Assembly: GCF_009936135.1 (NCBI RefSeq)
Contig: NZ_CP047901.1
Span: 475,643 to 539,642, forward strand
Direction of reading: 5' to 3'
Source of the DNA: Candidatus Chazhemtobacterium aquaticus
Lineage (GTDB): Bacteria > Patescibacteriota > Microgenomatia > UBA1400 > Chazhemtobacteraceae
Length of the DNA stretch: 64,000 nucleotides
The notes under the pieces were generated by a model. That model was not told the origin of the DNA, ran no database searches, and saw only the letters and a list, made by a program, of their open reading frames with translations. A program made the translations under genes and the position numbers. Positions 1,831-25,117 of the stretch are shown in pieces (within the stretch, counting starts at the first letter, position 1; every line of letters begins with the position of its first letter).

Positions 1831-2349
1831 CTATCTTGTGACATCCCTCCCTATTCCATCTCGAAATCCATCAAACTTTTTTCTCATGTCTTGTCTGTTT
1901 CGTATTCCGATATCCCAGGAATCCAGTCCTTTGTCAACAATAACCATGCCCGAAGTGTGTCTCAAACCAATGTTTAGGTTGGCTGCATCAACATAGTATC
2001 TTTTCCCCTTTATCTCAATCTCGGCAATCACATGTCCAACAATTGGATCACCACCTTTTTCCAGCCATTCCCGACTTAACATCTCCACATACCAGGCTTT
2101 TATCCCCGCCGCTCTCGCCAATACTAAAAACACCAGTGTAAAATCCGTACAACCTGTTGCCCAGCCATTGCCTACAATCTCTGCCGCCGTTCTGCGCCTA
2201 AATACCTCAGGCTTCCTCTCTGATCGTATGTTGCCCTTAATCCATTCCAAAATTTCCAAAACTGATTCCACGTCATTCCCAAACTTATTTTCCTCCACTA
2301 CTCTTTCTATCTCCCCAGTTATCTTCGTCTGTTCACCGCTTTCCATCAT
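1831..2349 (-). CDS. Transglutaminase-like (Cys-His-Asp) superfamily protein.
   Basis: A catalytic-Cys motif GWATGCTDFTLVFLVLARAAGI is followed by His (GHVIAEI) and Asp (YYVDAAN) in the order seen in transglutaminase-like cysteine proteases. There is no signal peptide. Confidence 0.6.
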   Translation of the reverse strand: MMESGEQTKITGEIERVVEENKFGNDVESVLEILEWIKGNIRSERKPEVFRRRTAAEIVGNGWATGCTDFTLVFLVLARAAGIKAWYVEMLSREWLEKGGDPIVGHVIAEIEIKGKRYYVDAANLNIGLRHTSGMVIVDKGLDSWDIGIRNRQDMRKKFDGFRDGIGRDVTR

Positions 2350-7509: not shown

Positions 7510-8736
7510 GTGAAATTAAAACTTCCTCGCTTAGTCATCTTTTCCATCGTTATTGGTATTCTGCTCCGTCTCATTTTTGCTCTCACCACCTATCACGGTG
7601 ATCTGGCTGCCTTGGTTCTAGCCGGTGACTCTCTGGCGGTTAAACACCAGTTCATCAACTTCTACGAATCGGTTTTCACCATTGGCACTCAGGGTGAGCT
7701 CAAGCTCCCCGACCACCAGATGACCTTCATCTACCAACCCTTAGCCTACTTCATCCCCGGTCTTATCTACCTTCCCTTTGCCGGTGTCTTAAAAGGCTTA
7801 GTCGATGGTTTGCTTCACATCAATCCCTATTTACTGGCAGGCAAATCTCTCTTCTTCCCTCTCCTTATATACAAGCTCCCCCTTATTCTCGCTGACCTAG
7901 GCACTCTCTTCCTGTTGCCTAAATTCTTTACCAAGAAGAAAGATCAACATCTCTCCCTCATCCTCTGGTCGCTTAATCCCCTCGCTATTTACGTCTCTTC
8001 CATGGTCGGCCAGGTTGACGCCATCCTTACCTCCTTCCTGGTTGCCGGACTCCTTGCTTTCAAGAAAGATCGCCTCTACCTCTCCATTTTCTTCTTTACT
8101 CTTTCCGCCTTAGTCAAACCCATTGGTTTGGTTCTTCTTCCTGCCGTTGCCCTTTACCACTACTCGCTTCATCGCCGATTGCTGGATGTCGTCAAACTAG
8201 TTTCCTCAGGACTCCTCACCTATCTTCTGGTCATCGCCCCCTTCCTACCCTCTTTAGCTTATCGCCAGTACACTCTCTTTGCTGAACACATAAACAAGAC
8301 CCTCTTTGCCGGTATTGCCATCTCACCCGGCACCCTCATTCCCTGGTTTTTCATCACCTATGCTGCCATCCTGGTTCTCTTGCTTAATCGCCGTATCTCA
8401 CCTTTCTACGCTCTTGGTGCCGCTTTGTTAGCCAGTCTCTCCTTTACCCATTTCCACCCTCAGTGGTTAATCTGGCTCACTCCTTGGCTCGTTATATACC
8501 TAGTTACCACTAGGGATTGGCTAACTCCTTTGGTTACCCTTTTTTCGTGGTTGGTTATTCTTTTCTCTTTTGAACCAAGCCTAACCTATCATCTTTTCTT
8601 CGGTCTTAATCTAAATCCCATTGCTCTTTCCTCCTCGCTTGCTTCCTTCACTCCTCATTTAATTTCCCTGTCCCGGGCCTGGATTGCTGCCCTTCTGCTC
8701 CATTTCACTCTACAAAAGCCAGCTCATGAAACTTAA
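7510..8736 (+). CDS. Polytopic membrane protein, GT-C-fold glycosyltransferase-like. The start is placed at the in-frame GTG at 7510; the ORF-track start at 7384 lies inside the GC-rich element.
   Basis: At least 10 TM segments. The first loop has an acidic motif (YHGDLAALVLAGDS). A TACAAT box at 7498-7503 lies 6 nt upstream of the GTG, which would fit a leaderless mRNA. The start is uncertain. Confidence 0.45.
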   Translation: MKLKLPRLVIFSIVIGILLRLIFALTTYHGDLAALVLAGDSLAVKHQFINFYESVFTIGTQGELKLPDHQMTFIYQPLAYFIPGLIYLPFAGVLKGLVDGLLHINPYLLAGKSLFFPLLIYKLPLILADLGTLFLLPKFFTKKKDQHLSLILWSLNPLAIYVSSMVGQVDAILTSFLVAGLLAFKKDRLYLSIFFFTLSALVKPIGLVLLPAVALYHYSLHRRLLDVVKLVSSGLLTYLLVIAPFLPSLAYRQYTLFAEHINKTLFAGIAISPGTLIPWFFITYAAILVLLLNRRISPFYALGAALLASLSFTHFHPQWLIWLTPWLVIYLVTTRDWLTPLVTLFSWLVILFSFEPSLTYHLFFGLNLNPIALSSSLASFTPHLISLSRAWIAALLLHFTLQKPAHET

Positions 8737-10456
8737 AAACAAATCTCTCCTTGCCCTGCTTATCCTTACCCTTCTCGGGTTTATTCTCCGCTTTACCAAT
8801 CTTGACCAAAACCCTCCTGCTCTTAACTGGGATGAGGTCAGTCATGGCTACAACGCCTTCTCTATCCTAAAAACCGGTAAGGATGAGTGGGGTGTTGCCT
8901 TCCCCTTAATTTTCCGTGCCTTTGGTGATTACAAACTCCCTTTATACATCTACCTCACTGTTATTCCAGTCGCCCTCTTTGGCCTTAACGCCATTTCAGT
9001 AAGGTTAGTCTCGGTCCTAGCTGGCACCCTGGCTATTCCCGGCATCTACTTGCTTACCCGTCAGCTTTTTCCCAAGGTAGCTTTAAATTTTAAATTCAAA
9101 AAGCGATCTGTTTCTTTGTCATTACCTTTTCTTGCAGCTTTCTTTTTAAGCTTACTTCCTTGGCACCTCTTTATATCCCGCCCTGCTCTTGAAGCCAATC
9201 TAGGCCTGACTCTTTTCCTCTTTGCCGTTTACTTCCTGCTTAAATTCAAAGACAATCCCAAGCATTTACTCATCTCCTCCATCTTTTTCTCTCTCACTCT
9301 TCACACCTACAACACCTACCGAGTCTTGACCCCTCTCTTTCTCTTTCTCTACTTCCTACCTAAAGTTAAACCCTCATCTATCAAGCGTTTCTTAAATAAA
9401 CAACAACCTCGCCTGCTTTGGTTGTCACTAGCCGTATTTTTTCTTTCCTTCTCTCTAGTTATTTCCCAGACTCTTAGTGGCACTGGCACTGCCCGTTACC
9501 AGAAACTAGCTATCCTCAATGACCAGACAGTTTTCCAGATAGGGGAGGCTCGTCAAAACAGCTCTCTGCCGCCAGTGTTGGCTCGACTTCGTCACAACCG
9601 TCCTCTTTTCTTTGTAGAGCAGTTTGCCCACAACTATCTTAACTACTTCACTCCCCAGTTCCTCTATCAATCCAACGGAGCCCAGACCCAGTTCGCTATT
9701 CCTTACAAGAATCTGCTTACCCTTAATCTAACCATCTTGGCTGTATTGGGTTTCTTTGTCGTAATTAAACATATTAAGAACTCTTCCCATCGTCTGGTTT
9801 TACTTCTACTCGCCTTAAGTCCGGCCGCCGCTGCCATTACTGCCAGTCCGCCGCAGGCCCTGCGTCCTACTCCATTAATCATTCCCCTGACCTTGTTAGC
9901 CGCTCTTGGATTCTTTGTAGTAGTCAATCTTTTTTCCTCTCGCAACTGGGCCAAGTCAGCCGTTGCCTTTATTCTGCTTGTCAGTTTCATGTCCTCATCC
10001 TTTAGCTATCTCTCTACCTACTGGAACTCATATCGATTTGAGTACTCCACCTCCTGGCAATATGGTCATCAACAGCTTTTCGAGTATCTTGGGAAAAATC
10101 AGGATCAGTACGACCGCATTTTCATCACCAAGTATCACGGTGAGCCCCACATCTTTTATGCTTTCTTTATGAAGCTTAACCCTCATCTGCTTCAGCCCGG
10201 TGGTGACAGTTTGCGCTTTAAGCAATCAGATTGGTACTGGACTGATCGTATTGGCAAAGTCTATTTCGTCAACGACTGGGACATTCCCTACTTCTCTCCC
10301 GCCCCTGCCATTCCGCTTGAGTCAGGTGATCTTATACCCACCTCCAATGCCTTGCTTATCACCTCAGTTGAGCACTTGCCATCAAACACAGAGATTGTTG
10401 AGTTAATCGAGGACTTATCTGGTAACATCGCCTTTGTAGTTGCCAGATTTAAGTAA
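8726..10456 (+). CDS. GT39/PMT/ArnT-like GT-C membrane glycosyltransferase (paralog 1).
   Basis: Motifs LRFTNLDQNPPALNWDEVSHGYNAFSIL (DE motif in the first loop) and FRAFGDYKLPLY. Multi-TM with a C-terminal soluble domain containing WQYGHQQL...YDRIFI. ATG at 8726 (MKLKNKSL) overlaps the upstream stop by 11 nt. Confidence 0.7.
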   Translation: MKLKNKSLLALLILTLLGFILRFTNLDQNPPALNWDEVSHGYNAFSILKTGKDEWGVAFPLIFRAFGDYKLPLYIYLTVIPVALFGLNAISVRLVSVLAGTLAIPGIYLLTRQLFPKVALNFKFKKRSVSLSLPFLAAFFLSLLPWHLFISRPALEANLGLTLFLFAVYFLLKFKDNPKHLLISSIFFSLTLHTYNTYRVLTPLFLFLYFLPKVKPSSIKRFLNKQQPRLLWLSLAVFFLSFSLVISQTLSGTGTARYQKLAILNDQTVFQIGEARQNSSLPPVLARLRHNRPLFFVEQFAHNYLNYFTPQFLYQSNGAQTQFAIPYKNLLTLNLTILAVLGFFVVIKHIKNSSHRLVLLLLALSPAAAAITASPPQALRPTPLIIPLTLLAALGFFVVVNLFSSRNWAKSAVAFILLVSFMSSSFSYLSTYWNSYRFEYSTSWQYGHQQLFEYLGKNQDQYDRIFITKYHGEPHIFYAFFMKLNPHLLQPGGDSLRFKQSDWYWTDRIGKVYFVNDWDIPYFSPAPAIPLESGDLIPTSNALLITSVEHLPSNTEIVELIEDLSGNIAFVVARFK

Positions 10457-10461
10457 ACAGA

Positions 10462-11238
10462 GTGAATCCGACAATTATTCCAACTCAATTCTCAATACTA
10501 CTTCTTAGTCTCCTAGGATATATTGTTATTACCCATAAATCCTACATCGTTTTTTTATATCTTATTTCCGTTCCTTTCTTCTTTTATTTTCCGCTCCAAC
10601 CGGTAACTTTAGTAATTTCTATAATTTTCGGAATTCTTCTTTTTGAATTGTTTAATAAGCCAAACAAGAAAAACTTTATTCTATCTTCACTCGTACTTTT
10701 TATTGCTTTTTTTCTCCTCCATCAAAACAGTCATCTATATATTCCCACCAGCAACATTATTGATCACCAAAGAGGTGCTCATCCCGATTGGCAATACAGC
10801 TCAATCCCTCGCTTACTGCACAACAAATTTTACTTAGTTTTCCAATACCTAGACATACTTATTAGTAAACTTTCACCTTCACGTCTGTTTGTCTATGGTT
10901 GGTACCCAAATTTGTCTCCATATCTACCATTAGGTTATTTTTTTGCTTCAGATTTAATTTTTCTATATGCATTTCTCAAATCACGACTTGGTCATCCAAA
11001 GTCACCCATCTTATATTTTTTCCTTTCTTTGGTTCTTCTGGGAATAGCTATATTTGAAGGGCAGATCTCTCTTTTCTTCTTATCCTCACTGGTTCTTTTC
11101 ATGGCACTATGCATTTCACACTTTATAGCCGGACTGCCACGCAAATACTCACTTACCACTCTCTCGGTTTATGCATTAACTTTGTTATGGATTAACCCAA
11201 CCATTAACCTATTTTGGAACATTGGTTTTCGTCCTTAG
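10462..11238 (+). CDS. Small polytopic membrane protein (about 7 TM), unknown function.
   Basis: Hydrophobic 258-aa ORF immediately downstream of GT39 paralog 1. Confidence 0.45.
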   Translation: MNPTIIPTQFSILLLSLLGYIVITHKSYIVFLYLISVPFFFYFPLQPVTLVISIIFGILLFELFNKPNKKNFILSSLVLFIAFFLLHQNSHLYIPTSNIIDHQRGAHPDWQYSSIPRLLHNKFYLVFQYLDILISKLSPSRLFVYGWYPNLSPYLPLGYFFASDLIFLYAFLKSRLGHPKSPILYFFLSLVLLGIAIFEGQISLFFLSSLVLFMALCISHFIAGLPRKYSLTTLSVYALTLLWINPTINLFWNIGFRP

Positions 11239-11241
11239 TCT

Positions 11242-12915
11242 ATGAAACTAAACCGCTTATATCTTCTAGCCGCCATTATATTTGTCCTCGCAGTTCTACT
11301 CCGTTTTCTTTATATAGACACTATTCCCAACAACTTAACCATGGATGAAGTAAATAACGGCTACACAGCTTACTCGCTTCTTAAAACAGGTCACGACGAA
11401 TGGGGAAATTTTCTTCCTTTTTCATTTCGTTCGGTCGGTGATTACAAACCTCCAATACTGATTTACCTAACTGTTCCATCTATTGCTCTTTTCGGTCTAA
11501 ACGAATTTTCTGTTCGTTTCCCTGTAGCTCTTGCTTCACTCTTTTCCCTCCTTTTTACCCTTCTCCTTAGTAAGAAATTTTTATTTGCCAAACAACCACT
11601 CTGGTTTCACCTATTCGTATTATTTTTGTTCGCCACATCCCCGTGGCACATCATATTCTCCCGATCCGGATACGAAGCCGTTGTCGCCCTCCTCTTCTTT
11701 CTTATTAACATTCTCCTTCTTTTACAGTTTATTAAGGAAAAAAGACCTATTCTGCTTGCTTTAGCCATCACTTTTGCTTTCCTTTCTGTCTTCACTTATC
11801 ACTCCTACAAAGTCTTTACCCCTCTGATGAATTTGCTGGTCATCTTCGTTTATCGTCAGACATTACTAGAACATTTTAAGCATGTTTTTGGCACCTCCAG
11901 ACTTCATTGCTCTTATTTGGCTGTCCTTGGCCTACTCATCTTCCTCAGCTGGTTTTTGATTACTCAATACCTTACCGGGCCCGGGGCAACCAGAGCTTCA
12001 ATGGTTTTCATATCTTCAGATTATGAATACAAAGTCGCTCTGATTGATAAACTGCTTAAATATGATTTTCACCATTATCAATATCTCTTTTTCCCCCTCT
12101 TTTGGTTTAAACGCTATCTTGACTATTTCTCACCCAATTTCTACCTATATTCAGGGTTAGAATTAACCCAACCCGGACACATAGGGTCAGGCGTTACTGG
12201 TTTTGCTGTATTCAGTCTTTTCGTTACTGGTCTATATGCACTCCTTTTTAATAAAGGTAAGTTGCTTATTAGGCAGCCTATCCGCACGATTCTTTTAGGT
12301 TGGCTCTTTATTGGCTTTCTGCCTGCTTCTCTGGCAAACAATATTCAACAACCTCTCCGTGCCCTAGCCGCCTTGCCAGCAATTCTATTTATTGCAGCTC
12401 TAGGTTTATTGCATTTATTTCAATCTTTAAGAAATCGTTTTCATCTCATAGTCATTGCTGTATTTCTAACTACATTATTTGTCTTTGATTATGTTAGATT
12501 TGCTGATCATTACCTCATTCACTACCCATACGATCTGGCAGAAGGACGTCACTATGGCTGGAAGCAGATTTATCAATATTTGGAACCTATAAAAGACAAC
12601 TACCATCAAATTTACGTCGATCAACGTTATGGCCACACGGGTAGAACAACTTACTCAGTCCCGTACCTCTACTTTCTTTTTTACTCACAATACGATCCCC
12701 TCGTATTTCAGCAAGATCCCCGAAGGAAGCAGCACGATGCCAACTTTGATCAATTCATCTTTGGTGACATAGATTGGCAGTCCCAGGATCTGGGCAAAAA
12801 CAATCTGTTTGTTGCCTCACCCTGGAGTTTTACCATCTACCAAGGGCCCATCTTGCACACCGTTTATTTCCCCGACGGGGTTCCTGCCTTGCATATTATC
12901 GAAGGACCAAAATAA
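11242..12915 (+). CDS. GT39/PMT/ArnT-like GT-C membrane glycosyltransferase (paralog 2).
   Basis: Motifs LRFLYIDTIPNNLTMDEVNNGYTAYSLLKTGHDEWG and FRSVGDYKPPILIYL, clearly paralogous to the 8726 and 13603 genes. Confidence 0.7.
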   Translation: MKLNRLYLLAAIIFVLAVLLRFLYIDTIPNNLTMDEVNNGYTAYSLLKTGHDEWGNFLPFSFRSVGDYKPPILIYLTVPSIALFGLNEFSVRFPVALASLFSLLFTLLLSKKFLFAKQPLWFHLFVLFLFATSPWHIIFSRSGYEAVVALLFFLINILLLLQFIKEKRPILLALAITFAFLSVFTYHSYKVFTPLMNLLVIFVYRQTLLEHFKHVFGTSRLHCSYLAVLGLLIFLSWFLITQYLTGPGATRASMVFISSDYEYKVALIDKLLKYDFHHYQYLFFPLFWFKRYLDYFSPNFYLYSGLELTQPGHIGSGVTGFAVFSLFVTGLYALLFNKGKLLIRQPIRTILLGWLFIGFLPASLANNIQQPLRALAALPAILFIAALGLLHLFQSLRNRFHLIVIAVFLTTLFVFDYVRFADHYLIHYPYDLAEGRHYGWKQIYQYLEPIKDNYHQIYVDQRYGHTGRTTYSVPYLYFLFYSQYDPLVFQQDPRRKQHDANFDQFIFGDIDWQSQDLGKNNLFVASPWSFTIYQGPILHTVYFPDGVPALHIIEGPK

Positions 12916-12920
12916 ACACC

Positions 12921-13601
12921 ATGAAACCAGTCAAGAAAAATAAACCAAACTTATCTGCCCATATCATCTACCTTCTCTTCTTTACGGCTGTCATCATGCT
13001 TCTTCCTCCTTTACTTCATCTACCTTTAGTTCTCTCCTTTCTTCCCTCCTTGTCTATTTCTTCTCATTGGTTTCTCGAGTTAAGTTTTCTTTTTGGCGTT
13101 ACCCTCATTCCTCTGCTTGTTATCTATGTCTTCTCTAAACTCATTTTAGTTATTAAAAAGCCATCTTACTTTATTATTCTCTCTGCTCTGCTTCTGATTC
13201 TTGTCTCGTACTTGAATCTTGATTACTCCTTCATCTTAGTCAATCAAGCTAATGCCACTCGCCTGCTTGTTTTTGGTCTTATCTTTACCCTCTATACCAG
13301 TCTTGTCTTAAGTTATTTCTGGAAGAAAATATTTGTCAAAGGTTATGTTTCTTATGCCCATCTGCTTAAACCCTCTCTCTATCTAGTTGCTTTCCTCTTG
13401 TTTATCGAGTGGTTGATTATGATTACCACTGGTCGCAACCTACTTCTCGATTTATACATTCTCCTGGGCGAATCACTCATAGAGTTAATCAACATCTTCT
13501 ATCTCGATTTCTATGGCTTTGTCGGCATTTTCTTTAGCCTGCTTGCCTCAACCACTGCCCTGATCTCTCTCTTTATCCATTCCCGCTGGCATTTGTCATA
13601 A
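12921..13601 (+). CDS. Small polytopic membrane protein (about 6 TM), unknown function.
   Basis: ATG at 12921 (MKPVKKNK). The 12774 upstream extension overlaps the previous gene and is rejected. Follows GT39 paralog 2. Confidence 0.45.
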   Translation: MKPVKKNKPNLSAHIIYLLFFTAVIMLLPPLLHLPLVLSFLPSLSISSHWFLELSFLFGVTLIPLLVIYVFSKLILVIKKPSYFIILSALLLILVSYLNLDYSFILVNQANATRLLVFGLIFTLYTSLVLSYFWKKIFVKGYVSYAHLLKPSLYLVAFLLFIEWLIMITTGRNLLLDLYILLGESLIELINIFYLDFYGFVGIFFSLLASTTALISLFIHSRWHLS

Positions 13602-13602
13602 T

Positions 13603-15285
13603 ATGGGTATGAAGTTATCTAAAGACTTAATCATAGTCCTTCTTCTAGCCGCCTTGCTTCGTCTTCCTTTCTTAGGCCAATATCCTGCTGGACTTAACGC
13701 TGATGAAGCAGCTCTTGGCTACAATGCCTACTCCCTCATTCAAACTGGTGCTGATGAACACGGTGTCTCCTGGCCCCTGGTTTTCCGCTCCTTTGATGAC
13801 TACAAACCGCCTCTCTATGTATATATTGTTCTTCCCTTTGTCTACCTTTTTGGCTTAACGCCTTTTGTTGTTCGTCTCCCTTCTGCTTTGCTAGGTATTG
13901 CCACCGTCTATCTCACCTATCTCCTGACTCATCAGCTTTTTCCCAAAAAAGAGATTGTCTTAAACAAGAAAAAGTTAAGTTTAAGTTTACTGGCAACTTT
14001 CTTACTTGCCATCAGCCCCTGGCATCTCCACTTTTCTCGCGGTGCTTGGGAAGTCAATGTCGCCCTCTTTTTCCTCACGCTTGGCCTTTACACCTTCTTT
14101 AAAGCTTTAAACTCTCCTCGCTTCTATATCCTCTCCGCCCTTTCCTTTGTCGCCTCCCTATATACCTACCACTCCATTCGCATCATCGCGCCCCTGCTTT
14201 TGTTAGTTTTGGTCATTCTTCACCACAAACAACTACTCACTCAGCTTAAAAACTCTGCCTCTAGAGGTTTCCTGTTGGTCGCCTTTGTCCTCGGTCTGTT
14301 CTTAACCCTTCCTCTAGCTTCTCAAATGCTCTCCCAGGAAGGTCAGTCCCGTTTCTCTGGTGTCTCCATTTTTGCCGACTCCGGTCCTCTCTGGGAAGCT
14401 TTAGAGAAACGCCGTCTAAGTCCCGATCCTGACTCGCTCTTAACCAGACTTCGCTACAACCGTTACTTGAGTTACTCCAAGCGATTTGTAGAAAACTATC
14501 TGTCTCACTATCAACCCGACTTCCTCTTTATCTCCGGTGATGAGATAGCCAGAAGCAAGGTTCCAGGTTTTGGCCAAAGCTTTGTTATATTCGCCCCCTT
14601 CTTCTACCTTGGCCTCGTTGTTTTGTTCTTTAAGCGCACTTCGGCTCATCGCTTTCTTTTTGCCTGGTTGTTACTAGCCCCCTTAGCTGCCGCCCTTACC
14701 TTTCAGTCTCCCCATGCCTTAAGAAGTCAAAACATGGTTATCCCTTTTAGTCTCACTCTTGGTATTGGCATCCTCACCTTTTTTTCCTGGCTTAAGGGCT
14801 TTAAACCCAAGAGCGTCCTTATTATCTTTGTCCTCTTAGGCCTTCTTACCGCCAAACACTTCATCTCTTACATAAACAGCTACTATTTCCACTACCCCAA
14901 AGTCTATCCCTTTGCCTGGCAGTATGGTTTTGACCAACTGGCAGAGTATTTAAGCCCCATTCAGTCTGACTACGACACCATCGTCATCTCTGACCGCTAT
15001 GATCAGCCATATATCCTGCTTGCCTTCTTCCTTAAATACGATCCCAACAGATTGCAGCAAGAGCTAGTCTTTTCTGATCGTGATAACTTTGGTTTTTCTA
15101 CCGGCAGAAGCTTTGGCAATTACAAGTTCCACCGCATCACCGACCAGGACTTTGATTTACCCAACACCTTGATTGTGGTTGCCGATGAACCGGTTCCAGA
15201 TGGCCTTACTCCCATCCACACCCTCTACTATCCCAACCAGCAACCTGTCTTCACCATCTATCAGACCTCTAAATTGGTAGAATAA
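13603..15285 (+). CDS. GT39/PMT/ArnT-like GT-C membrane glycosyltransferase (paralog 3).
   Basis: Motifs LRLPFLGQYPAGLNADEAALGYNAYSLIQTGADEHG and FRSFDDYKPPLYVYI; C-terminal WQYGFDQLAEYLSPIQSDYDTIVI. Confidence 0.7.
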   Translation: MGMKLSKDLIIVLLLAALLRLPFLGQYPAGLNADEAALGYNAYSLIQTGADEHGVSWPLVFRSFDDYKPPLYVYIVLPFVYLFGLTPFVVRLPSALLGIATVYLTYLLTHQLFPKKEIVLNKKKLSLSLLATFLLAISPWHLHFSRGAWEVNVALFFLTLGLYTFFKALNSPRFYILSALSFVASLYTYHSIRIIAPLLLLVLVILHHKQLLTQLKNSASRGFLLVAFVLGLFLTLPLASQMLSQEGQSRFSGVSIFADSGPLWEALEKRRLSPDPDSLLTRLRYNRYLSYSKRFVENYLSHYQPDFLFISGDEIARSKVPGFGQSFVIFAPFFYLGLVVLFFKRTSAHRFLFAWLLLAPLAAALTFQSPHALRSQNMVIPFSLTLGIGILTFFSWLKGFKPKSVLIIFVLLGLLTAKHFISYINSYYFHYPKVYPFAWQYGFDQLAEYLSPIQSDYDTIVISDRYDQPYILLAFFLKYDPNRLQQELVFSDRDNFGFSTGRSFGNYKFHRITDQDFDLPNTLIVVADEPVPDGLTPIHTLYYPNQQPVFTIYQTSKLVE

Positions 15286-15289: not shown

Positions 15290-16144
15290 ATGCCTAAATC
15301 AGCCACTCTCTCAATCGCTCTGGCAACCTACAATGAACAGGACAATATTGTTGATTGTTTAAAGTCGCTTAAAGGCATTGCCACGGAGGTGATTGTGGTT
15401 GACGGTTCCTCCACCGACCAAACCAGGCAGCTGGCTAAAAAACACAAAGCTAAAGTCTACAAAACCACCAACAAACCCATCTTCCATATCAACAAGAACC
15501 TAGCTATCAAGAAATGTAAAGGTGATTGGATTCTCCAGCTTGATGCTGATGAGCGTCTCACCCCAGAATTAAAGGAAGAGATTGCCCAGGTACTGTCAGG
15601 ATCATATTTTGGCTACACCGACTGGCGTTCAAGTCAAAAATATCAGGCAGACACTCCACCGGTTGCTTACTGGCTTAAGCGTCGCAATTACTTTTTAGGT
15701 CATTACTTCACCAAATCAGGCCAGTATCCTGATCCAGTCATTCGTCTCTTCAGGCGTGGTTTTGCCACTTTACCAGCCAAAAGTGTACATGAACAGATGA
15801 AGGTAAATGGCCCACTTGCCTGGTTAAAATCAGATCTTGATCACTTTGCTACCCCAACATTTTCACGATACATTCAACGCGAAAACAGATATTCCTCACT
15901 TACAGCTCAAGAGCTGAAGGATGGGGGAGTTACCATCAATCCCTTCTCGTTTATTAACTTTATCTTCATAAAACCTCTCTCCACCTTCCTTGCTATCTAT
16001 CTTCGCCACAAGGGTTTTCAAGACGGCTTCTCCGGTTTTGTTTTTGCTCTTTTTTCAGGCCTTCACCATGCCTTAAGCTATATCAAACTCTGGGAGCTAA
16101 AAAGCGGCAAGCGGAATCTTAATTTGCAAACTGATTGGAGCTAA
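15290..16144 (+). CDS. Glycosyltransferase family 2 with C-terminal TM.
   Basis: LSIALATYNEQDNIVDCLKSL...VIVVDGSSTDQT...LQLDADE. Confidence 0.7.
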   Translation: MPKSATLSIALATYNEQDNIVDCLKSLKGIATEVIVVDGSSTDQTRQLAKKHKAKVYKTTNKPIFHINKNLAIKKCKGDWILQLDADERLTPELKEEIAQVLSGSYFGYTDWRSSQKYQADTPPVAYWLKRRNYFLGHYFTKSGQYPDPVIRLFRRGFATLPAKSVHEQMKVNGPLAWLKSDLDHFATPTFSRYIQRENRYSSLTAQELKDGGVTINPFSFINFIFIKPLSTFLAIYLRHKGFQDGFSGFVFALFSGLHHALSYIKLWELKSGKRNLNLQTDWS

Positions 16145-17202
16145 TGTCACCTCTTCGTGTCCATATCCCTACCGACTCCCGCTCCACCGGTCGTGGTATT
16201 GGTTTTTACACCGCTAATCTGATTGATGCTCTAAAAAAGATTAAGGACATCAAGCTTGTTGATACTCAACCTGACCTTATTCACTATCCCTACTTTGATC
16301 TCTTCTATCCAACCCTCAATCCTACTGAAAACATTCCCTCTATAGTCACCATCCATGACGTTACCCCTTTAGTTCTGTCTCGTTTCTACCCCAAAGGCAT
16401 CAAGGGTAGGTTTAATTTGTTTAAACAAAAACAGGCCCTTAAACGCGTCACTGCCGTCATTACCGACTCAAACAACTCCAGGCAGGATATCATCAAGCAC
16501 CTCAGGGTTCCTGAAAACAAGATTCATGTCACCCCTTTAGCTGTTGACCCCTTCTATGCCAAACCAGTCAGTAGTAAGGCTATCAGCGAGGTTAAGGCCA
16601 AGTACTCTCTTCCTGATGTATTTCTTCTTTATGTTGGTGGAGTCAATCCCAACAAAAATCTACCCCGCCTTATAACAGCCGTTACCAAGCTCAATCTGCC
16701 TTTAGTTCTAGTTGGCTCAGAGTTTACTCGGCCCACTCCTCCCATTTCTTCTCTTAAAGCCAAGCTAGGCCTCCAATCAGTTCATCCCGAGTTAAAGGAT
16801 TTACGATTCATTAAACACTCACTTGAAACCAATCCCTTACTTCACGCCCTAGGCTTTGTTTCCAACCAAGATCTCTCAGCCATATATCGTCTGGCTCTAG
16901 CCTACTGTCAGCCCTCACTGTATGAAGGCTTTGGTCTGCCAGTCCTGGAAGCCATGTCTGCCGGTTGTTTGATCGTTGGTAGCAACCAGAGCAGTTTGCC
17001 AGAGATCTATCCCCCCCAAGCCATTACCTTTGACCCAAAAAGCACTCAGTCAATGCTTAATGCTTTAAAAAAAGTTATTGGTCTCAAACCCAAGGACAGA
17101 GAAACTCTCATCAAGCTTGGACTAGAAAGATCTAAAGATTTCTCCTGGGACGCCACCGCCAGACTCACTGCCACTGTCTACTCACTTGCCAAAAATACAT
17201 AA
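16135..17202 (+). CDS. Glycosyltransferase family 4 (GT-B).
   Basis: C-terminal GT4 signature [36 protein letters not shown]7 tract sits at 17011-17017. Confidence 0.75.
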   Translation: MELMSPLRVHIPTDSRSTGRGIGFYTANLIDALKKIKDIKLVDTQPDLIHYPYFDLFYPTLNPTENIPSIVTIHDVTPLVLSRFYPKGIKGRFNLFKQKQALKRVTAVITDSNNSRQDIIKHLRVPENKIHVTPLAVDPFYAKPVSSKAISEVKAKYSLPDVFLLYVGGVNPNKNLPRLITAVTKLNLPLVLVGSEFTRPTPPISSLKAKLGLQSVHPELKDLRFIKHSLETNPLLHALGFVSNQDLSAIYRLALAYCQPSLYEGFGLPVLEAMSAGCLIVGSNQSSLPEIYPPQAITFDPKSTQSMLNALKKVIGLKPKDRETLIKLGLERSKDFSWDATARLTATVYSLAKNT

Positions 17203-17217: not shown

Positions 17218-18699
17218 CTATCTCACCACCGTCAGCCAACGCCAGAAGAAGGGGATCCGTATCTCCGACAACCAGGTTGATGGTCCCATCGGGCAGGTAA
17301 TACTCTCACAATCAATCGAGAAAGCGGAATAGATGTATTTAGCGTTAAAATACGCTCCCGCTAGGATGACTCCAACAAGCAATACTCTTGATATGTTTTT
17401 AAGCATTTCCCTTGGCCAGATCATGTTGATTAAAGAAGGGGAGACCAGTAGTAGGTAAACAACTCTAAATACGTTCGGATCCGTTGTTGGTCGAAAAGCG
17501 TTATGTAAGAAGTATCTGCCGGACAGTAACAAGCCTACCGCCAAAGCCATATTCACAAACCTTACGTCTTTCAGGAATTTAATTAACCCCAATCCTCCCA
17601 TAATCGCCATTAAAGGAAACATTGGGTAGCGGTACCACGGCAGCATATCCTGCTCGGTTCCCGAGAACACCGCCACCATCAGCCAGTAAATCCAGAACAG
17701 TACGACCCACCCAAGCTCCTTACTCTTCTTGCTCTTAAAGGCAAAAAAGAGAGTGCTAAGCAAAGCAAAAATATACCAGCCGTCAAACATCGGCCAGATA
17801 TCATATCCAGGCGAGCTAAAGATGTAAGCAAGTCCAGTCCAGCCGGCAAATCTTACCCCCTGGATCTCCACGATTGTTTTAAACAATTCCCAGTCAAGCC
17901 AGTAGCCATAAGCTACGAACAAGCCAACTCCAGCCAAGGTTAAAAGCAAGATAATAAGAACATCAGCCCAGCGCTTTTTTCTAGCCGACACAAACATCAT
18001 TAAAGGAGCAATAAAAAAACCAGTTGGCTTCATCAATCCGCCAATCACCGCCATCACTCCCCACACTCCCGCCATCCACTTACTTGGTTTCTTGTCATAT
18101 TTAGGCATCATTGCCAAAGACATCAATGTCATTAAGGCAATTATGTTTTCCGGTACCGACAAACGGGAGCCAAACACCATGATTGGCGACACTCCATAAA
18201 CCAACATTGCCATATATCCAGCCCAAAATCCAAAGAAGTGATAACCCACCCAGAACACCAGTCCAAGCGTTATCAAACTAGCCAACACGCTAGGTATTCT
18301 CGTGTGGGAAGTTGGCAGCACCATCTCCCTATCATCTCCATACAGATGAGCCGCTCCCCCAGCTAGCAGTGAGTAAAGCGGTGGCTCATCCACCCACGGC
18401 TTGTATAGTTTGGCCGGCAAATACACTCCGTTTTTATCTCCTACAATCCCATCAAACACCAGATTTTCATCCGGGTAATCAAGGGTTGACCAAGACACCG
18501 GTTCTCCAGTCTCAATCAAATGTATCCCAGACCAACCATAAAGTAGCTCCTCAGCATGACTCGCACCCGGCACCCGGTCATAATCATGCAGCCTTATTAC
18601 CGCCAAAAACAAGAAAGTTATCACCAAAAGCCAGAACCATCCGCCTTTAAACCACTTAATCATCCCCCTTATTCTCTTTAAATTAAACTCATCAGTCAA
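17218..18699 (-). CDS. ArnT/GT39-related GT-C membrane glycosyltransferase.
   Basis: HDYDRVPGASHAEELLYGWSG (acidic loop motif) and WVDEPPLY. At least 10 TM segments. Confidence 0.55.
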   Translation of the reverse strand: MTDEFNLKRIRGMIKWFKGGWFWLLVITFLFLAVIRLHDYDRVPGASHAEELLYGWSGIHLIETGEPVSWSTLDYPDENLVFDGIVGDKNGVYLPAKLYKPWVDEPPLYSLLAGGAAHLYGDDREMVLPTSHTRIPSVLASLITLGLVFWVGYHFFGFWAGYMAMLVYGVSPIMVFGSRLSVPENIIALMTLMSLAMMPKYDKKPSKWMAGVWGVMAVIGGLMKPTGFFIAPLMMFVSARKKRWADVLIILLLTLAGVGLFVAYGYWLDWELFKTIVEIQGVRFAGWTGLAYIFSSPGYDIWPMFDGWYIFALLSTLFFAFKSKKSKELGWVVLFWIYWLMVAVFSGTEQDMLPWYRYPMFPLMAIMGGLGLIKFLKDVRFVNMALAVGLLLSGRYFLHNAFRPTTDPNVFRVVYLLLVSPSLINMIWPREMLKNISRVLLVGVILAGAYFNAKYIYSAFSIDCESITCPMGPSTWLSEIRIPFFWRWLTVVR

Positions 18700-18750: not shown

Positions 18751-19989
18751 GTGAAGCAAATAACCAAACACCTAACCACCTCTACTGCCAAAAACTCCTC
18801 CCTCTTCTATTTCGGCAGCTTGTTTATCAACTTTGGCCGCTATCTCTTTCACTTACTTCTCCTCCGCTTCCTCTCTCCCTCTTCCTATGGTGAGTTTCTC
18901 TCTTACGTTTCCCTTCTTTATCTTCTTACCATTCCCTCCGGCGTTATTCAGACCCTAGTCAGTCGAGACGTCTCTCTCTTTTTTGGTAAGCAAGACTTTC
19001 GCTCCATCAAGCATTTCTTTTACTTTCTCTCACCGCTAGCCCTGGTTCCTGCTCTCCTCATATCTGTTCTGGTCATTTTCTTTGCCAATCCATTAGCTCA
19101 TCTTCTTACTGCCGACCCTGCGGCCTTCATAGTCTTGAGTCTGATGACCGTCACCTCTATCCTTGGTGCCGTTCTTCGCTCATACCTGCCTGCTCTTCAG
19201 CGCTTCACTACTCAAGTTCTTATTGGCTTCATCGAGCTCCTTATCCTTATCGCCTCGGCTTATATCTTCCTCATTTTTAAATTAGGTGCTCTAAGCGGTG
19301 TTCTGGCCATGTTTCTCTCTGGTGTCATTGCCATCCTTCTCTCTGGCTACCTGCTTCGTTCATATCTTCTACCCAAGCCTAAAAAGGTGACCACTTTCAA
19401 GATCAACCATATCTTTCTCTACTCCCTCATCTTTTCCGCCGGCACCCTCTCCCTCATGTCCACCGATGTTTTACTCGTCCGTTACTTCTTTTCTTCTCAT
19501 GACTCTGGCCTTTACTCAGCTCTTTCCGTCATCGGTCGCATGATTTTCTTTGGTCTTACTCCCATCGGTAGCTTAATCCTCCCCATTGCCGCCAGCCGTT
19601 ACGCCAGCAAACAACCCACCAACTCAGTTTACTTAAAACTCATCATTTCAGCTGGCTTTTTAGGTATTGGCGCTGTTTCTCTCTTCTCTCTCTTCCCTGA
19701 CTTAGTTGTTCGCTTGCTTTCAGGTAGCGAGTATCTAGCCATCACTTCATTAATTCCCTTCATCTCCCTGACCATGTTCTTCTTAAGTCTTAACCAGCTC
19801 ACCCTCTCGTATCTACTCGCCGTTGGTAAAGAAAAAGGTACTTACTTACTCTTCTTTTTCGCCTTACTTCAGCCTTTATTAATCATCTTTATTCATTCCT
19901 CTCTCTATCAGGTCATTACCTTAAACCTGACTCTCCAGCTTTGTCTCTTTATCACCCTCGTTATATACAATACCCTTAAGAAAGTATGA
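18751..19989 (+). CDS. Wzx-like oligosaccharide flippase (polysaccharide biosynthesis protein, MOP superfamily).
   Basis: About 12 TM over 412 aa, with the layout typical of Wzx flippases and the motif QTLVSRDVS. Transcribed divergently from the 17218 gene. Confidence 0.5.
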   Translation: MKQITKHLTTSTAKNSSLFYFGSLFINFGRYLFHLLLLRFLSPSSYGEFLSYVSLLYLLTIPSGVIQTLVSRDVSLFFGKQDFRSIKHFFYFLSPLALVPALLISVLVIFFANPLAHLLTADPAAFIVLSLMTVTSILGAVLRSYLPALQRFTTQVLIGFIELLILIASAYIFLIFKLGALSGVLAMFLSGVIAILLSGYLLRSYLLPKPKKVTTFKINHIFLYSLIFSAGTLSLMSTDVLLVRYFFSSHDSGLYSALSVIGRMIFFGLTPIGSLILPIAASRYASKQPTNSVYLKLIISAGFLGIGAVSLFSLFPDLVVRLLSGSEYLAITSLIPFISLTMFFLSLNQLTLSYLLAVGKEKGTYLLFFFALLQPLLIIFIHSSLYQVITLNLTLQLCLFITLVIYNTLKKV

Positions 19990-20786
19990 AACCCCAACCA
20001 GCCGACCCCAATCTCTTAAGTGTCATTGTCCCTACCTACAAGTGTCCAACTATAGTAAGAGACTTAAAAAGCATCACCCGATATCTTGATCAGCTCAATC
20101 GTCCTTACGAGGTTCTCTGCATTGTTGATGGCAAAGCTCATGCTCGTGACACCACTCTTCAAAAAGCCAGGAAAGCCAGGAGCACCAAGGTCTCCGTCTA
20201 CTCATATCCTCAAAACAGAGGTAAGGGTTATGCCGTCCGTTACGGTATGGCCAGAGCCAAGGGTGGTCTGATTGCCTTCATAGATGCAGGATCCGATCTT
20301 CACGCCTCCGGTATTGGTATGGCCCTAGAGCATCTTAAGTGGTACGAAGCCGATATCATCATCGGTAGCAAACGCCACAAAGCCAGCAAGGTCACCTATC
20401 CCTTTAAGCGCAGAGTCATCAGTACCCTGGCTCAATGGGCCATCCGTCTCTTCTTTGGTGTCCGCGTCTCTGATACCCAAACAGGCTTAAAGCTTTTCCG
20501 TAGGCAAGTTTTAGAACAAGTCCTTCCTCGTCTAGTCATCAAGCGTTTTGCTTTTGATTTAGAGATCCTAATCGTGGCTCACCGTTTAGGCTTCAATCGT
20601 ATCTACGAGTCTCCCATCGAGCTAAACTACAACTTTTCAAGCACTATTAACGGTTCAGCTCTCTATCACTCTGCCGTCGATTTCCTAGCCATCATCTACC
20701 GCACCTATATCCTTCGCTACTACGACGATCGCCATCAGGATATCTGGGAACATGATCCCAAATTAGCTCTCCGCTACCACTCATGA
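19986..20786 (+). CDS. GT2 polyprenyl-phosphate sugar synthase, Dpm1/GtrB-like (dolichyl-/undecaprenyl-phosphate mannosyl- or glucosyltransferase family).
   Basis: LSVIVPTYKC...YEVLCIVDGKAHAR...QNRGKGYAVRYGMARAKGGLIAFIDAGSDL...IIIGSKRH...VSDTQTGLKLFRRQVL. The domain order matches Dpm1/GtrB/ArnC. It is the expected lipid-linked donor synthase for GT-C enzymes. Confidence 0.7.
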   Translation: MKPQPADPNLLSVIVPTYKCPTIVRDLKSITRYLDQLNRPYEVLCIVDGKAHARDTTLQKARKARSTKVSVYSYPQNRGKGYAVRYGMARAKGGLIAFIDAGSDLHASGIGMALEHLKWYEADIIIGSKRHKASKVTYPFKRRVISTLAQWAIRLFFGVRVSDTQTGLKLFRRQVLEQVLPRLVIKRFAFDLEILIVAHRLGFNRIYESPIELNYNFSSTINGSALYHSAVDFLAIIYRTYILRYYDDRHQDIWEHDPKLALRYHS

Positions 20787-21782: not shown

Positions 21783-23516
21783 CTATTCCTTGGTCACCAG
21801 GAAATACGCCACCTCACTATTATCAGGGTAGGGTATACTCTCGATGACTTTTACCCTACTTGGCAGACTTCCTTTCTCAGGCCTAATATCTCCCTTAGCG
21901 TCTTGCTGAGTGATTAGATAAAGAACGCCTTCCTCGAGTGCTTCACCCATCTCATGAGGCATCTGTTTACCCTCAGTTACCTTACTCCAGCTCATCATCT
22001 TCACCTTGTCCAACCCCATACCCTTAATTACCTCAGGTCCAAACTCAACTCCATACTCCTGCACATCTTTCGGTGGGATTTGGGCCCAAAACAGGTAATA
22101 CAGCATGGCCGGATCATTGGAGTTAGTCAGCATTACTTTGTCATAGTCCTTCTCTATCTCTTTAATCTTCAACATCGCCTGTTGGTATCCATAACCATGC
22201 CACCTGGCCGCTTCCAGAGGAAAGTGGACAAAGTATTTGTGAGCCACGTTTATAAACACCAGTAGGTAGACACCAACCAAAGCTATATTGATAAGCCCTC
22301 CCCATTTTTGCTTTGCTAGCATCTTGGTAATCTGCCACCAGCCCAAGCCTACAATGATAAGTAGCGGTCCGGCCATCATGATCAGTCTCGAAGCGTGATT
22401 AGCTCCATCCACAGTCAGATCGGCAGGTAATGGGGAACTTAACAGCCACAGGCCCAGTAGTTGGTTTTCTTTGCGCTTAATGTTTTTGGTTAGCCAAAAC
22501 AGTCCTGCTGCCAAACCGATAATATCAATCCATAACAAAGCCCCAGTTTTACCCATCCCTTGCCGCAGGTTACTATCTCCCGTTGCAAACAGGAAGGTGG
22601 TGGAGATGCTTTTAAGATAGTTGTTCTTCAAAGAAGACAAATACTCCACCCCCTTATTATGAAACAAGTATGAGTACCACACCGGTCGGTTGCCAACCGT
22701 CTCTTGAAGATAATCACCCGAGTCTACCTCCCTACCCCTGATTACATAAATTGGAGCCAATGGATCAGAGAAGATCGATAGCTGTTCAAATCGGGTTTGG
22801 TCGGGTGTCTCCACCGCTGTGTAGTACAGGAAGGGTAAGATGATTGCCGCCGCCACCATCCCTCCGATCACCACTCTCTTTATACCCATCCCCAGTATCT
22901 CTCTCCAGTAAACCAGCCCAACCATTAGAAAAGTTAATGGCACGTAGAAACTCATGATCCGATAGCTATATACCCCCAACGACAACAGGACTACTGAGAG
23001 ATAAAAGGTTTTTACATTTTTACTCTTAAGCCAGTTAAAAAAGGTAAGTAAAAAGCCAAGATACATCATCAAGGCAAACATGGCCTCAAAAGCAATCCGG
23101 CTAAACTGAATCAGCCAGGGATTTAAGGCCATCACTGCTCCAACTAAGAAAGCCGCTCTCTTATCCTTACTCCACTTTAGGGTTAGCAAAGCCGCCAATA
23201 CCACCACCGCCATACCAGCCAAAGCCGTTGTCACTCTTGCCTGCAAGACTCCAGGGCTAAATATCATCGCTGCTGGGATTGATAGATATATCGGTAATGG
23301 AGTCTTAAGATCATGCATCGACCAGGCGTAAAAAGGACTAAAGGTGCCTCGATAGTCTCGGCCTGTCTCCAGCAAACTTCTAGCTTGGTAAGCCAGATCT
23401 ACTTCGTCATAATAAAGACCAGCCGGCACCTCCTCCAGCTGGTAAAATCGAACCAAACCTGCCACCAAGACAACCAGTAACAGCCACCACCATTTCGTTA
23501 ATACCTTCATTCTCAA
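21783..23516 (-). CDS. GT39/PMT/ArnT-like GT-C membrane glycosyltransferase (paralog 4, inverted).
   Basis: LVRFYQLEEVPAGLYYDEVDLAYQARSLLETGRDYRG; C-terminal WHGYGYQQA...YDKVML. Confidence 0.7.
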   Translation of the reverse strand: MRMKVLTKWWWLLLVVLVAGLVRFYQLEEVPAGLYYDEVDLAYQARSLLETGRDYRGTFSPFYAWSMHDLKTPLPIYLSIPAAMIFSPGVLQARVTTALAGMAVVVLAALLTLKWSKDKRAAFLVGAVMALNPWLIQFSRIAFEAMFALMMYLGFLLTFFNWLKSKNVKTFYLSVVLLSLGVYSYRIMSFYVPLTFLMVGLVYWREILGMGIKRVVIGGMVAAAIILPFLYYTAVETPDQTRFEQLSIFSDPLAPIYVIRGREVDSGDYLQETVGNRPVWYSYLFHNKGVEYLSSLKNNYLKSISTTFLFATGDSNLRQGMGKTGALLWIDIIGLAAGLFWLTKNIKRKENQLLGLWLLSSPLPADLTVDGANHASRLIMMAGPLLIIVGLGWWQITKMLAKQKWGGLINIALVGVYLLVFINVAHKYFVHFPLEAARWHGYGYQQAMLKIKEIEKDYDKVMLTNSNDPAMLYYLFWAQIPPKDVQEYGVEFGPEVIKGMGLDKVKMMSWSKVTEGKQMPHEMGEALEEGVLYLITQQDAKGDIRPEKGSLPSRVKVIESIPYPDNSEVAYFLVTKE

Positions 23517-25113: not shown

Positions 25114-25117
25114 ATTT

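Follow-up and report, generated by a model that had tools for sequence, protein, structure and literature searches.

What kind of enzyme is encoded by the tandem array of large membrane proteins in Candidatus Chazhemtobacterium aquaticus, and are the two small membrane proteins interleaved with them working parts of the array? The window (the whole stretch of 64,000 nucleotides that was analysed) derives from an uncultured, groundwater-dwelling Microgenomates bacterium that is Ca. Chazhemtobacterium-like, and the region belongs to a glycan-assembly island. Copy 1 (c1; 8726..10456), small ORF 1 (small1; 10462..11238), copy 2 (c2; 11242..12915), small ORF 2 (small2; 12921..13601) and copy 3 (c3; 13603..15285) all lie on the forward strand and encode proteins of 576, 258, 557, 226 and 560 aa, respectively. 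Copies 1 and 2 are full-length GT-C proteins, and copy 3 is the most conserved member and the last gene of the conserved array. Copy 4 (c4; 21783..23516, reverse strand, about 575 aa) is a dispersed paralog and copy 5 (c5; 34578..36203, forward strand, 541 aa) is the most divergent one. The seven ORFs of the initial annotation are real: gene calls made independently on the contig of origin agree with these coordinates. The small2 protein is 100% identical to one from Ca. Chazhemtobacterium aquaticus, and the window shows the published strand G/C disparity.

The five large proteins are paralogous, as had been proposed, with BLASTP similarities far beyond chance under composition-based statistics. 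Identity among the copies is 24–36%, with copies 1 and 3 sharing 36% (E=8e-72); other pairs gave E values of 3e-50 (c2 vs c3), 1e-39 (c1 vs c2), 2e-30 (c1 vs c4), 3e-21 (c4 vs c5) and 1e-14 (c1 vs c5). Copy 4 matched c1–c3 at 2e-30 to 5e-36, and the weakest pair was c2 and c5 (E=1.4e-4). Because these E values are composition-adjusted, the blocks shared by the five proteins are not compositional artefacts.

Copy 3 consists of ∼12–13 TM helices followed by a C-terminal α/β soluble domain of ∼125 aa. The N-terminal block described for all five paralogs holds in its Asp-Glu pair (D34 and E35 in copy-3 numbering, located in the first external loop), but ∼22 residues of that loop, the 'GY.A.SL..TG.DE.G...FRS.GDYK' portion, are deleted from copy 5. 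Neither D34 nor E35 varies among the 98 aligned family members, the five window paralogs included, and R250 and R374 are likewise invariant; R91 and R146 are conserved in 97 and 96 of the 98, respectively. The C-terminal W-x-Y-G motif also needed qualifying: its Tyr-Gly is found in all five window paralogs, whereas the Trp is common and not universal (54 of 91 sequences), and the motif has no conserved Asp.

The family is predicted, in a model of high confidence, to adopt the GT-C fold, with a multi-pass architecture and a conserved N-terminal helix module that is superimposable on solved GT-C enzymes. The original assignment to a protein-O-mannosyltransferase/ArnT-like family is sound to this extent, but GT39/PMT membership could not be demonstrated. 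Only copy 3 matches Pfam PMT (PF02366), at 16.3 bits against a cutoff of 22.7, with no match in copies 1, 2, 4 and 5; a Pfam search of the five paralogs found no MIR domain, and the large external loop (residues ∼245–320) is modelled as a short helical segment. Against PMT_2 (PF13231, cutoff 26.1), copy 3 passes with 27.7 bits and copy 1 fails with 20.4, copies 2, 4 and 5 giving no match; PF13231 is also carried by most copy-3 orthologues in precomputed annotation. In the fold comparison PMT was no closer to the family than OST, ArnT or ALG12. Foldseek aligned ∼280 columns to PMTs (E ∼1e-3) versus 530–610 to OSTs and ArnT (1e-5 to 3e-7), ranking the OST catalytic subunits slightly ahead, and a profile search of the PDB detected only ArnT, weakly. 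Membership of the OST family (GT66), which the Foldseek ranking had raised together with the W-x-Y-G motif, was rejected, as WWDYG is absent and there is no OST sequence match; the PDB profile search returned no STT3/AglB/PglB match at E≤10. The family is, distantly, a PMT_2/ArnT-like GT-C family and not a bona fide GT39. That its members are true GT39/PMT protein O-mannosyltransferases acting on an S-layer, pilin or lipoprotein, with the acceptor differing for each paralog, is accordingly unlikely: the sub-threshold PF02366 score, the absent MIR domain and the shorter Foldseek alignments to PMTs all speak against it, as does the presence here of three to seven ordered paralogs beside Wzx/Wzy-type genes, when to our knowledge each characterised bacterial PMT system comprises a single gene.

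The surroundings of the array are rich in glycan-assembly genes. Within the window, Pfam identified a Wzy_C protein, two MOP flippases and many GT2 and GT4 genes, and there are at least five additional, more remote GT-C-like genes besides the five paralogs. These include 2333–4006 (reverse strand), 46640–48076, 53774–55246, which unlike the five paralogs scores above the Pfam PMT (PF02366) cutoff, and 17218..18699 (reverse strand, 481–493 aa), a PMT_2 protein above cutoff (PF13231, E=6.9e-9). Directly 5′ of copy 1, and overlapping it by 11 nt, is another of them, a gene for a 408-aa polytopic membrane protein (7510..8736, forward strand) with a weak match to the MptA_B family of GT-C proteins (PF26314) and relatives in just eight of 80 related loci. 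Downstream on the forward strand, a GT2 glycosyltransferase of 284 aa (15290..16144; Pfam GT2) is the neighbour found most constantly beside the array, with a homologue in 76 of the 80 loci, mostly right 3′ of the c3 orthologue. It is followed by a GT4 glycosyltransferase of 352 aa (16144..17202; Pfam Glycos_transf_1/Glyco_transf_4), also a conserved neighbour (65/80), and by a MOP/Wzx-type flippase-like protein of 412 aa (18751..19989; Pfam Polysacc_synt_3, 23.8 bits against a cutoff of 23) with a homologue in 32 of the 80.

A second GT2 gene (19986..20786, forward strand, 266 aa) had been put forward as a Dpm1/GtrB-like synthase of the sugar donor. The gene is present as described and recurs near GT-C arrays (44 of 80 loci), but its resemblance to the PpgS/ArnC class is weak. 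The protein has no C-terminal TM helices; its best NCBIfam match is PpgS (5.4e-13; 48.9 bits against a cutoff of 370), with no equivalog-level NCBIfam match to a characterised DPM1/GtrB/ArnC/PpgS-type member, and its best PDB matches are to ArnC (E=1.7e-4), confined to the GT2 domain. Among the ten GT2s of the window, it is the only one whose best matches are of the polyprenyl-phosphate glycosyltransferase class, and it can be described as weakly PpgS/ArnC-like and a candidate for that role. The GT2 at 15290, weighed as an alternative donor synthase, gave mixed PDB matches (GmaR, SunS, DPMS).

Small1, with ∼8 TM helices, is a truncated paralog of the GT-C enzyme. It contains the central external loop and the subsequent helices, without the catalytic first loop and without the C-terminal domain, and its predicted structure is GT-C-like with a confident fold. 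Comparison of small1 with the GT-C family core by hhalign gave a probability of 73% with a shallow six-sequence profile and 94.7% (E 6e-8) with the 29 family members recovered in an exhaustive search. These 29 clusters form a family of ∼250-aa proteins conserved over their full length, and small2 likewise has ∼49%-identity homologues, showing that neither small protein is an ORF artefact.

The initial annotation had considered both small proteins as dedicated partners of the GT-C copies that precede them. For small1 the tie to one GT-C enzyme is upheld, but the gene to which it is coupled is the downstream copy 2, not copy 1. A small1-family gene lies directly upstream of a copy-2-type gene (39–61% identity to copy 2) in six of six independent contigs, the two genes overlapping by 4 nt or lying ≤3 nt apart, while the gene further upstream varies. 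Five of these six contexts were found starting from small1, and they test the association of small1 with c2 and not the reverse. Only three c2-clade genes occur in the unbiased set of 80 loci, and a mini ORF with a match to the family core (96% probability, E=3.5e-9) comes before every one of them. These mini ORFs, from Woesebacteria, have no significant direct similarity to the small1 family (hhalign E 0.006–0.03), leaving their identification as small1 orthologues unsupported; the two groups are both truncations of one core located before c2-clade genes, and may be independent truncations. A profile scan of metagenome contigs with a narrower small1 alignment found no relatives.

The conservation pattern of the c2 clade (seven genomes, bootstrap 100) provides a possible rationale for this association. 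All seven members keep D34, E35, D51, R91, R146, Y189, R250 and R374, whereas R270, D313 and R317 occur in none of the seven, compared with 58, 46 and 53, respectively, of 91 other family members. Copy 2 thus retains catalytic-type residues, with degenerate central-loop motifs. The best-conserved residues of small1 (QRGEH and LHNK) correspond to loop motifs (R270 and H285/N286) lost from the copy-2-type enzymes. That the loop motif of small1 would complement those lost by copy 2 is only suggestive, because R270 (58/91) and D313 (46/91) are not universal in the other paralogs and small1 itself has no D313. Our inference is that small1 acts alongside copy 2 as a partner without catalytic activity. 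A more ambitious proposal, which we regard as possible but tentative, is that the small1 family represents an obligate non-catalytic subunit derived from a truncated GT-C paralog, giving the R...HNK loop motif in trans to copy-2-type enzymes in a 'split' GT-C, and that the whole Microgenomates array would work as an assembly line producing an envelope glycopolymer specific to CPR.

The suggested partnership does not extend to small2, a polytopic membrane protein whose ∼49%-identity homologues are found away from any GT-C gene. Small2 has 12 homologues, which share conserved motifs, NIFYLDFYGFVG among them. Those at ∼49% identity (L009–L012, from other CPR genomes) have no GT-C neighbour, and in L009, L010 and L012 they come after YceG and a gene of 290 aa. 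A small2 HMM found no match in the 80 array loci, and small2 has no family match in Pfam. Descent of small2 from a GT-C fragment was rejected (hhalign probability 1%), as was mutual paralogy of small1 and small2 (BLASTP E=0.006 over 40 residues only, HMMs without cross-match). The comparisons indicate that small2 is a conserved gene, unrelated to the GT-C family, that was inserted locally into the array in a lineage-specific manner.

A different role for both small ORFs would be that of carrier-lipid flippases, filling the place of GtrA/GtcA in systems of GT2, flippase and GT-C and serving the adjacent GT-C enzymes. Their location between GT-C genes as small polytopic proteins, the GT2 plus GT-C arrangement found here and the failure to find a GtrA-family gene among the scanned ORFs would fit this role, and binding of polyprenyl phosphate might survive in a GT-C core that has been truncated. 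It is nonetheless improbable, since the small ORFs show no similarity to GtrA or any transporter family (neither they nor their families match GtrA, PF04138, or any other Pfam entry), homology ties small1 to the GT-C core itself, the cluster already has a conserved MOP flippase, small2 homologues elsewhere are unlinked to GT-C genes and 77 of the 80 arrays are without such a small ORF.

The array is not the product of the recent tandem triplication first envisaged. Copies 1, 2 and 3 fall into three separate orthogroups with bootstraps of 95, 100 and 97, respectively, and their closest relatives are orthologues in other Microgenomates families, closer than the paralogs of their own genome. The c1 clade comprises 20 sequences from 20 genomes, with orthologues at 46–54% identity in Collierbacteria and 36–40% in Woesebacteria. 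Copy 4 groups with genes that stand first in the arrays of 14 genomes (bootstrap 54), and copy 5 has no clear orthogroup within the sampled loci. A copy-3 orthologue closes a head-to-tail array of two to seven paralogs in 79 of 80 other Microgenomates loci, in the conserved order c1–Z–c3, and GT2, GT4, flippase and GT2 genes are conserved downstream. The phylogeny indicates that the three copies are anciently diverged members of one GT-C family. The small1–copy 2–small2 block between copies 1 and 3 has a lower GC content. The array enzymes are under purifying selection, with dN/dS of 0.07–0.12 (0.07 for c1), and not under the diversifying selection suggested earlier; the small ORFs have values of 0.17–0.24 (0.24 for small2). 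A recent lineage-specific triplication under diversifying selection on a surface glycan, with the small ORFs as decaying remnants or ORF-calling artefacts, could appeal to the tandem arrangement, to 24–36% identity read as fast divergence and to the splitting of copy 2 in one close relative, but is already contradicted by the phylogeny and, with the dN/dS values and the conservation of both small proteins also against it, is hardly credible.

Taken together, these data make it probable that the locus encodes an ancient GT-C array acting on a surface glycopolymer, with small1 partnering copy 2 and small2 as a local insertion. In such a model, cytoplasmic GT2/GT4 enzymes would load sugars onto polyprenyl phosphate, the 19986-type GT2 being the best candidate for this step, and the MOP flippase would carry the lipid-linked sugars outward. 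Each GT-C paralog would then add a sugar at a different position or linkage of the cell-surface glycopolymer on the outer face of the membrane, following a logic like that of the mycobacterial Emb/Aft/Mpt enzymes, with its C-terminal soluble domain holding the acceptor. Small1 is inherited with copy-2-type enzymes as a translationally coupled pair. In this scheme we infer the donor type, the acceptor, sequential action and a physical interaction between small1 and copy 2. The acceptor may be a protein, given the OST lead in the fold ranking.

CPR/Patescibacteria make up a large share of bacterial diversity, and their cell-envelope chemistry is almost unexplored. That an ordered array of three to seven GT-C genes is conserved across Microgenomates along with GT2, GT4 and flippase genes suggests a common, probably essential surface glycoconjugate in this group, and the array supplies concrete genes for expression and assay. 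Searches of the literature library returned no description of CPR GT-C arrays or of the small1 protein family. Compared with known enzymes, sequence similarity to ArnT and RgtA–D (Pfam PMT_2, CAZy GT83) spans only ∼65–170 residues, and ArnT does not have the C-terminal α/β domain with a W-x-Y-G motif that is found in the array family. ArnT modifies lipid A, and the usual description of CPR Microgenomates is of cells with neither an outer membrane nor LPS. In the OST subunits STT3/AglB/PglB (GT66), the C-terminal domain is more than twice as large, and the Asp of their WWDYG motif is not conserved in the array family. As in the window, a GT2 (here a candidate donor synthase), a flippase and a GT-C enzyme are encoded together in Gtr-type three-component systems (GtrA/GtrB/GtrC; CsbB/GtcA/YfhO; PMC8035078, PMC11127046). 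These systems have one GT-C enzyme, whereas the window has many paralogs, no GtrA-family protein and a flippase candidate of MOP type, and its small membrane protein is a GT-C fragment. The mycobacterial embC-embA-embB and Aft/Mpt sets resemble the array in that their GT-C paralogs lie in tandem and all carry an extracytoplasmic C-terminal domain, and the likeness to Aft/Mpt includes the weak MptA_B-family gene adjoining copy 1. The Emb/Aft/Mpt enzymes act in sequence on a wall glycopolymer (arabinan, mannan) using polyprenyl-phosphate sugar donors, and EmbA and EmbB form a heteromer. GT39 PMTs carry in their large loop the MIR domain that is absent from the array family, and their Pmt1–Pmt2 heterodimer is composed of two full enzymes, whereas small1 would be a truncated, non-catalytic paralog; if so, small1 and copy 2 would represent a new two-subunit GT-C design, built from the enzyme's own truncated copy.

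All open reading frames of the glycosyltransferase array were found where the initial annotation placed them, and independent gene calls gave the same lengths: 576, 258, 557, 226, and 560 aa for copy 1 (8726–10456), small ORF 1 (10462–11238), copy 2 (11242–12915), small ORF 2 (12921–13601), and copy 3 (13603–15285), respectively, all on the plus strand. The three large proteins are, as first described, paralogs of one another and of copy 4 (21783–23516, minus strand) and copy 5 (34578–36203, plus strand), with all-against-all BLASTP E-values from 8e-72 (copy 1 versus copy 3, 36% identity) to 1.4e-4 (copy 2 versus copy 5) and 29 invariant columns in the five-paralog alignment. The two sequence blocks said to be common to all five are shared in part: the D-E pair of the first external loop is among the invariant columns, but copy 5 lacks ~22 residues of the N-terminal block and Y-G alone of the C-terminal motif is kept across all five window paralogs. 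The observation as a whole is real, and its original interpretation partly right.

The evidence supports a GT-C, ArnT/PMT_2-like identity for the large proteins. The proposed GT39/PMT-like assignment lacks support: no MIR domain was found in the large paralogs, and none of them passed the cutoff of the Pfam PMT model proper. Copy 3 exceeds the Pfam PMT_2 cutoff marginally (27.7 bits against 26.1), copy 1 falls under it, and copies 2, 4, and 5 give no match; the only solved protein matched by sequence was ArnT (E = 0.004–0.01). From 39 family sequences, AlphaFold2 gave a confident model of copy 3 (pLDDT 90.7, pTM 0.91), which consists of ~12–13 helices, a ~75-residue external helical loop (245–320), and a C-terminal α/β domain (~435–560). 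In a Foldseek ranking of this model the catalytic subunits of oligosaccharyltransferases (OSTs) and ArnT stand above the PMTs, with STT3/AglB/PglB also above ArnT. A W-x-Y-G motif lies directly after the last membrane helix (copy 3 residues ~435–446, window 14905–14940) and in the same position in the other paralogs. In view of both the fold ranking and this motif, a protein acceptor as in PMTs or OSTs is a lesser possibility; however, OSTs have WWDYG at this point, the Asp of which is not conserved in the paralogs, and the OST affinity has no sequence-level support. In themselves the tandem enzymes are unexceptional, belonging to a CPR family that has been annotated before, if not studied.

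Copy 3 has >3000 homologs at E ≤ 0.001, the best of which are 52–57% identical and carry names from Collierbacteria, Woesebacteria, and Wildermuthbacteria. Species-representative genomes, when scanned, yielded 504 relatives, and the 80 best loci were used for analysis of the array. A copy-3 ortholog is accompanied by other family members in 79 of these 80 loci (2–7 family ORFs per locus in total) and is nearly always last in a head-to-tail run with frequent 4-nt overlaps. By best-match labeling the recurrent order ends with a copy-4-like gene, paralog Y, a copy-1 ortholog (36–54% identity), paralog Z, and the copy-3 ortholog (41–57%). In a neighbor-joining tree of 98 sequences (100 bootstraps), copies 1, 2, and 3 fall into three separate clades of 20, 7, and 19 genomes, with bootstraps of 95, 100, and 97, respectively. 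Separate orthogroups within shared arrays indicate that the duplications are older than the split among the Microgenomates lineages sampled (Collier-, Woese-, Shapiro-, Blackburn-, Davies-, and Amesbacteria), so that the tandem triplication first described is not a recent one. Nor does diversifying selection hold: measured against a relative ~86% identical (L008, ERZ4756921), copies 1 and 3 each have a dN/dS of 0.07 and copy 2 one of 0.12, and these genes are under purifying selection. One locus (L045:2982–6338) contains within its array a 1118-aa ORF of about twice the normal length, maybe a fusion of two adjacent paralogs.

The block of small ORF 1, copy 2, and small ORF 2 (10462–13601) stands where other genomes have paralog Z. 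Its GC content is 0.35–0.40 versus 0.45–0.46 in copies 1 and 3, its GC3 0.31–0.45 versus ~0.50, and its dS against L008 0.35–0.63 versus ~1.0–1.1. The lower GC and dS point to a partly separate history, and suggest that the block may have been separately acquired or recombined. Over the genes looked up, the window is identical to a metagenome contig of 165 kb (Logan SRR6186653_9908), and small ORF 2 matches a hypothetical protein of Candidatus Chazhemtobacterium aquaticus at 100% identity. The host is a Microgenomates (CPR) bacterium of the order UBA1400, and the two strands of its published complete genome (Ch65) differ unusually in G/C, as do those of related UBA1400 genomes (PMC7143001). 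This genome-wide disparity accounts for the plus-strand GC skew of the window (1–64000), which is ~−0.3 overall and ~−0.2 to −0.38 in nearly every 2-kb bin, regardless of gene orientation.

Both small ORFs are genuine genes but mutually unrelated. Small ORF 2 has 12 homologs with strongly conserved motifs, a dN/dS of 0.24, and resembles neither the GT-C family nor any Pfam family. It had been suggested as a possible dedicated GT-C partner; in other CPR genomes its ~49%-identical homologs lie next to no GT-C gene, and its HMM gave zero matches in the 80 array loci. In L009, L010, and L012 the homologs instead follow YceG/MltG and a 290-aa gene, which hints at a cell wall-related role separate from the array. 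Small ORF 2 is best regarded as an insertion specific to this lineage. The trio of YceG/MltG, the ~290-aa protein (no Pfam match), and the small ORF 2 homolog is conserved at L009:6185–8651 and L012:6053–8663.

Small ORF 1 (dN/dS 0.17 against L008) has no Pfam model. A word-indexed search found five homologs, and an exhaustive profile search extended these to 29 clusters at 50% identity, all of 160–270 aa; as the matches run end to end, this is a genuine small-protein family. Its most conserved residues are Arg104, Gly105, His120, Asn121, and Lys122, within the motifs QRGEH and LHNK. The 29-sequence profile aligns with residues 257–402 of the large family, covering the external loop and following helices (probability 94.7%, E = 5.8e-8), and in the fetched loci the HMM matches >100 family proteins of full length (best E = 2.8e-16). 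The C-terminal domain and the long first external loop are absent, and with the latter the D-E catalytic motif. This evidence points to small ORF 1 being a truncated GT-C family member.

In six independent contexts (the window, L007, L093, L094/095, L096, and L097), the gene directly after a small ORF 1-family gene belongs to the copy-2 clade, and the two either overlap by 4 nt or lie at most 3 nt apart. These downstream genes are 39–61% identical to copy 2 versus ~30% to copies 1 and 3, whereas the upstream gene varies (copy 1, an acetyltransferase, a 94-aa ORF, a GT2, an unrelated 416-aa protein, and a PMT_2 protein). The expected conservation of a small protein beside a GT-C gene is thus found for small ORF 1, but the link is to the copy downstream. 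The unbiased 80 loci contain only three copy-2-clade genes (L046, L060, and L087), and each is directly preceded by a 197–218-aa ORF matching family core residues 250–395 (96% probability, E = 3.5e-9). These Woesebacteria ORFs differ from small ORF 1 in helix count, with no significant direct similarity, and the two may be independent truncations. In copy-3 numbering, all seven copy-2-clade proteins keep the invariant residues of catalytic type, Asp34, Glu35, Asp51, Arg91, Arg146, Tyr189, Arg250, and Arg374, and none has Arg270, Asp313, or Arg317, which occur in 58, 46, and 53 of 91 other members, respectively. In close relatives of the window copy 2, a deletion of 8 residues has also taken out the "...L..RL.HN(K/R)" segment, the one best conserved in small ORF 1. 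Retention of this segment suggests that small ORF 1 could supply the loop function to copy 2 in trans, an argument weakened by the fact that some of the other paralogs, too, are without Arg270, Asp313, or Arg317; the specific model of small ORF 1 as a subunit with copy 2 is a tentative one, somewhat on the doubtful side. In L008 (6196–7868) copy 2 is split into 395- and 145-aa ORFs with ~20 residues missing between them, either a pseudogene or an assembly error at low coverage (~4×).

The genes downstream of the array are conserved as well: of the 80 loci, 76 have a GT2 of the 15290–16144 type, 65 a GT4, and 32 a MOP flippase. The GT2 at 19986–20786, initially called a Dpm1-like donor synthase, is the only one of ten window GT2 genes with polyprenyl-phosphate glycosyltransferases as best matches (PpgS, 5.4e-13; in the PDB, ArnC, 1.7e-4), but all are far under equivalog cutoffs, and C-terminal membrane helices are absent. 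Its type lies near arrays in 44/80 loci, and this conserved position supports a functional link for the candidate synthase. The genome paper mentions "29 genes of glycosyl transferases" without analysis (PMC7143001). The window also holds two MOP flippase-like genes, ~18 GT2/GT4 genes, and further GT-C-like genes at 2333–4006 (minus), 7510–8736, 17218–18699 (minus), 46640–48076, and 53774–55246. The last two, both PMT_2, flank a Wzy_C protein (52410–53822) among many GT2/GT4 genes in a second glycan cluster, and that at 53774–55246 clears the Pfam PMT cutoff. Beside copy 4 (23581–25804, minus) are a radical SAM protein (510 aa), with relatives downstream of arrays in 5/80 loci, and an FAD/NAD-binding oxidoreductase (224–228 aa), which may act in sugar modification. 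Three consecutive genes upstream of copy 5 (28628–34581, overlapping it) encode 1161, 359, and 459 aa, the second with an IPT/TIG domain and the others without a Pfam match, and could be surface or acceptor proteins. Immediately after copy 5 (36234–37522, minus), an AbiEii-family toxin gene (233 aa) and a 196-aa upstream gene look like a toxin-antitoxin or abortive-infection pair within the glycosylation island.

The most economical reading, and in its general picture a likely one, is an extracytoplasmic glycan-assembly pathway of three stages. Lipid-linked sugars would be provided by the GT2/GT4 enzymes and flippase, each ordered GT-C paralog would add one defined residue or linkage, and the C-terminal domain would engage the acceptor. 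Neither the phylum-wide ordered array nor a truncated paralog tied to one orthogroup appears to be described in the literature searched, and both are open to direct testing. Among known systems, ArnT is the closest sequence relative of the array enzymes, and the mycobacterial embCAB/Aft/Mpt set the closest functional analogy to the array.
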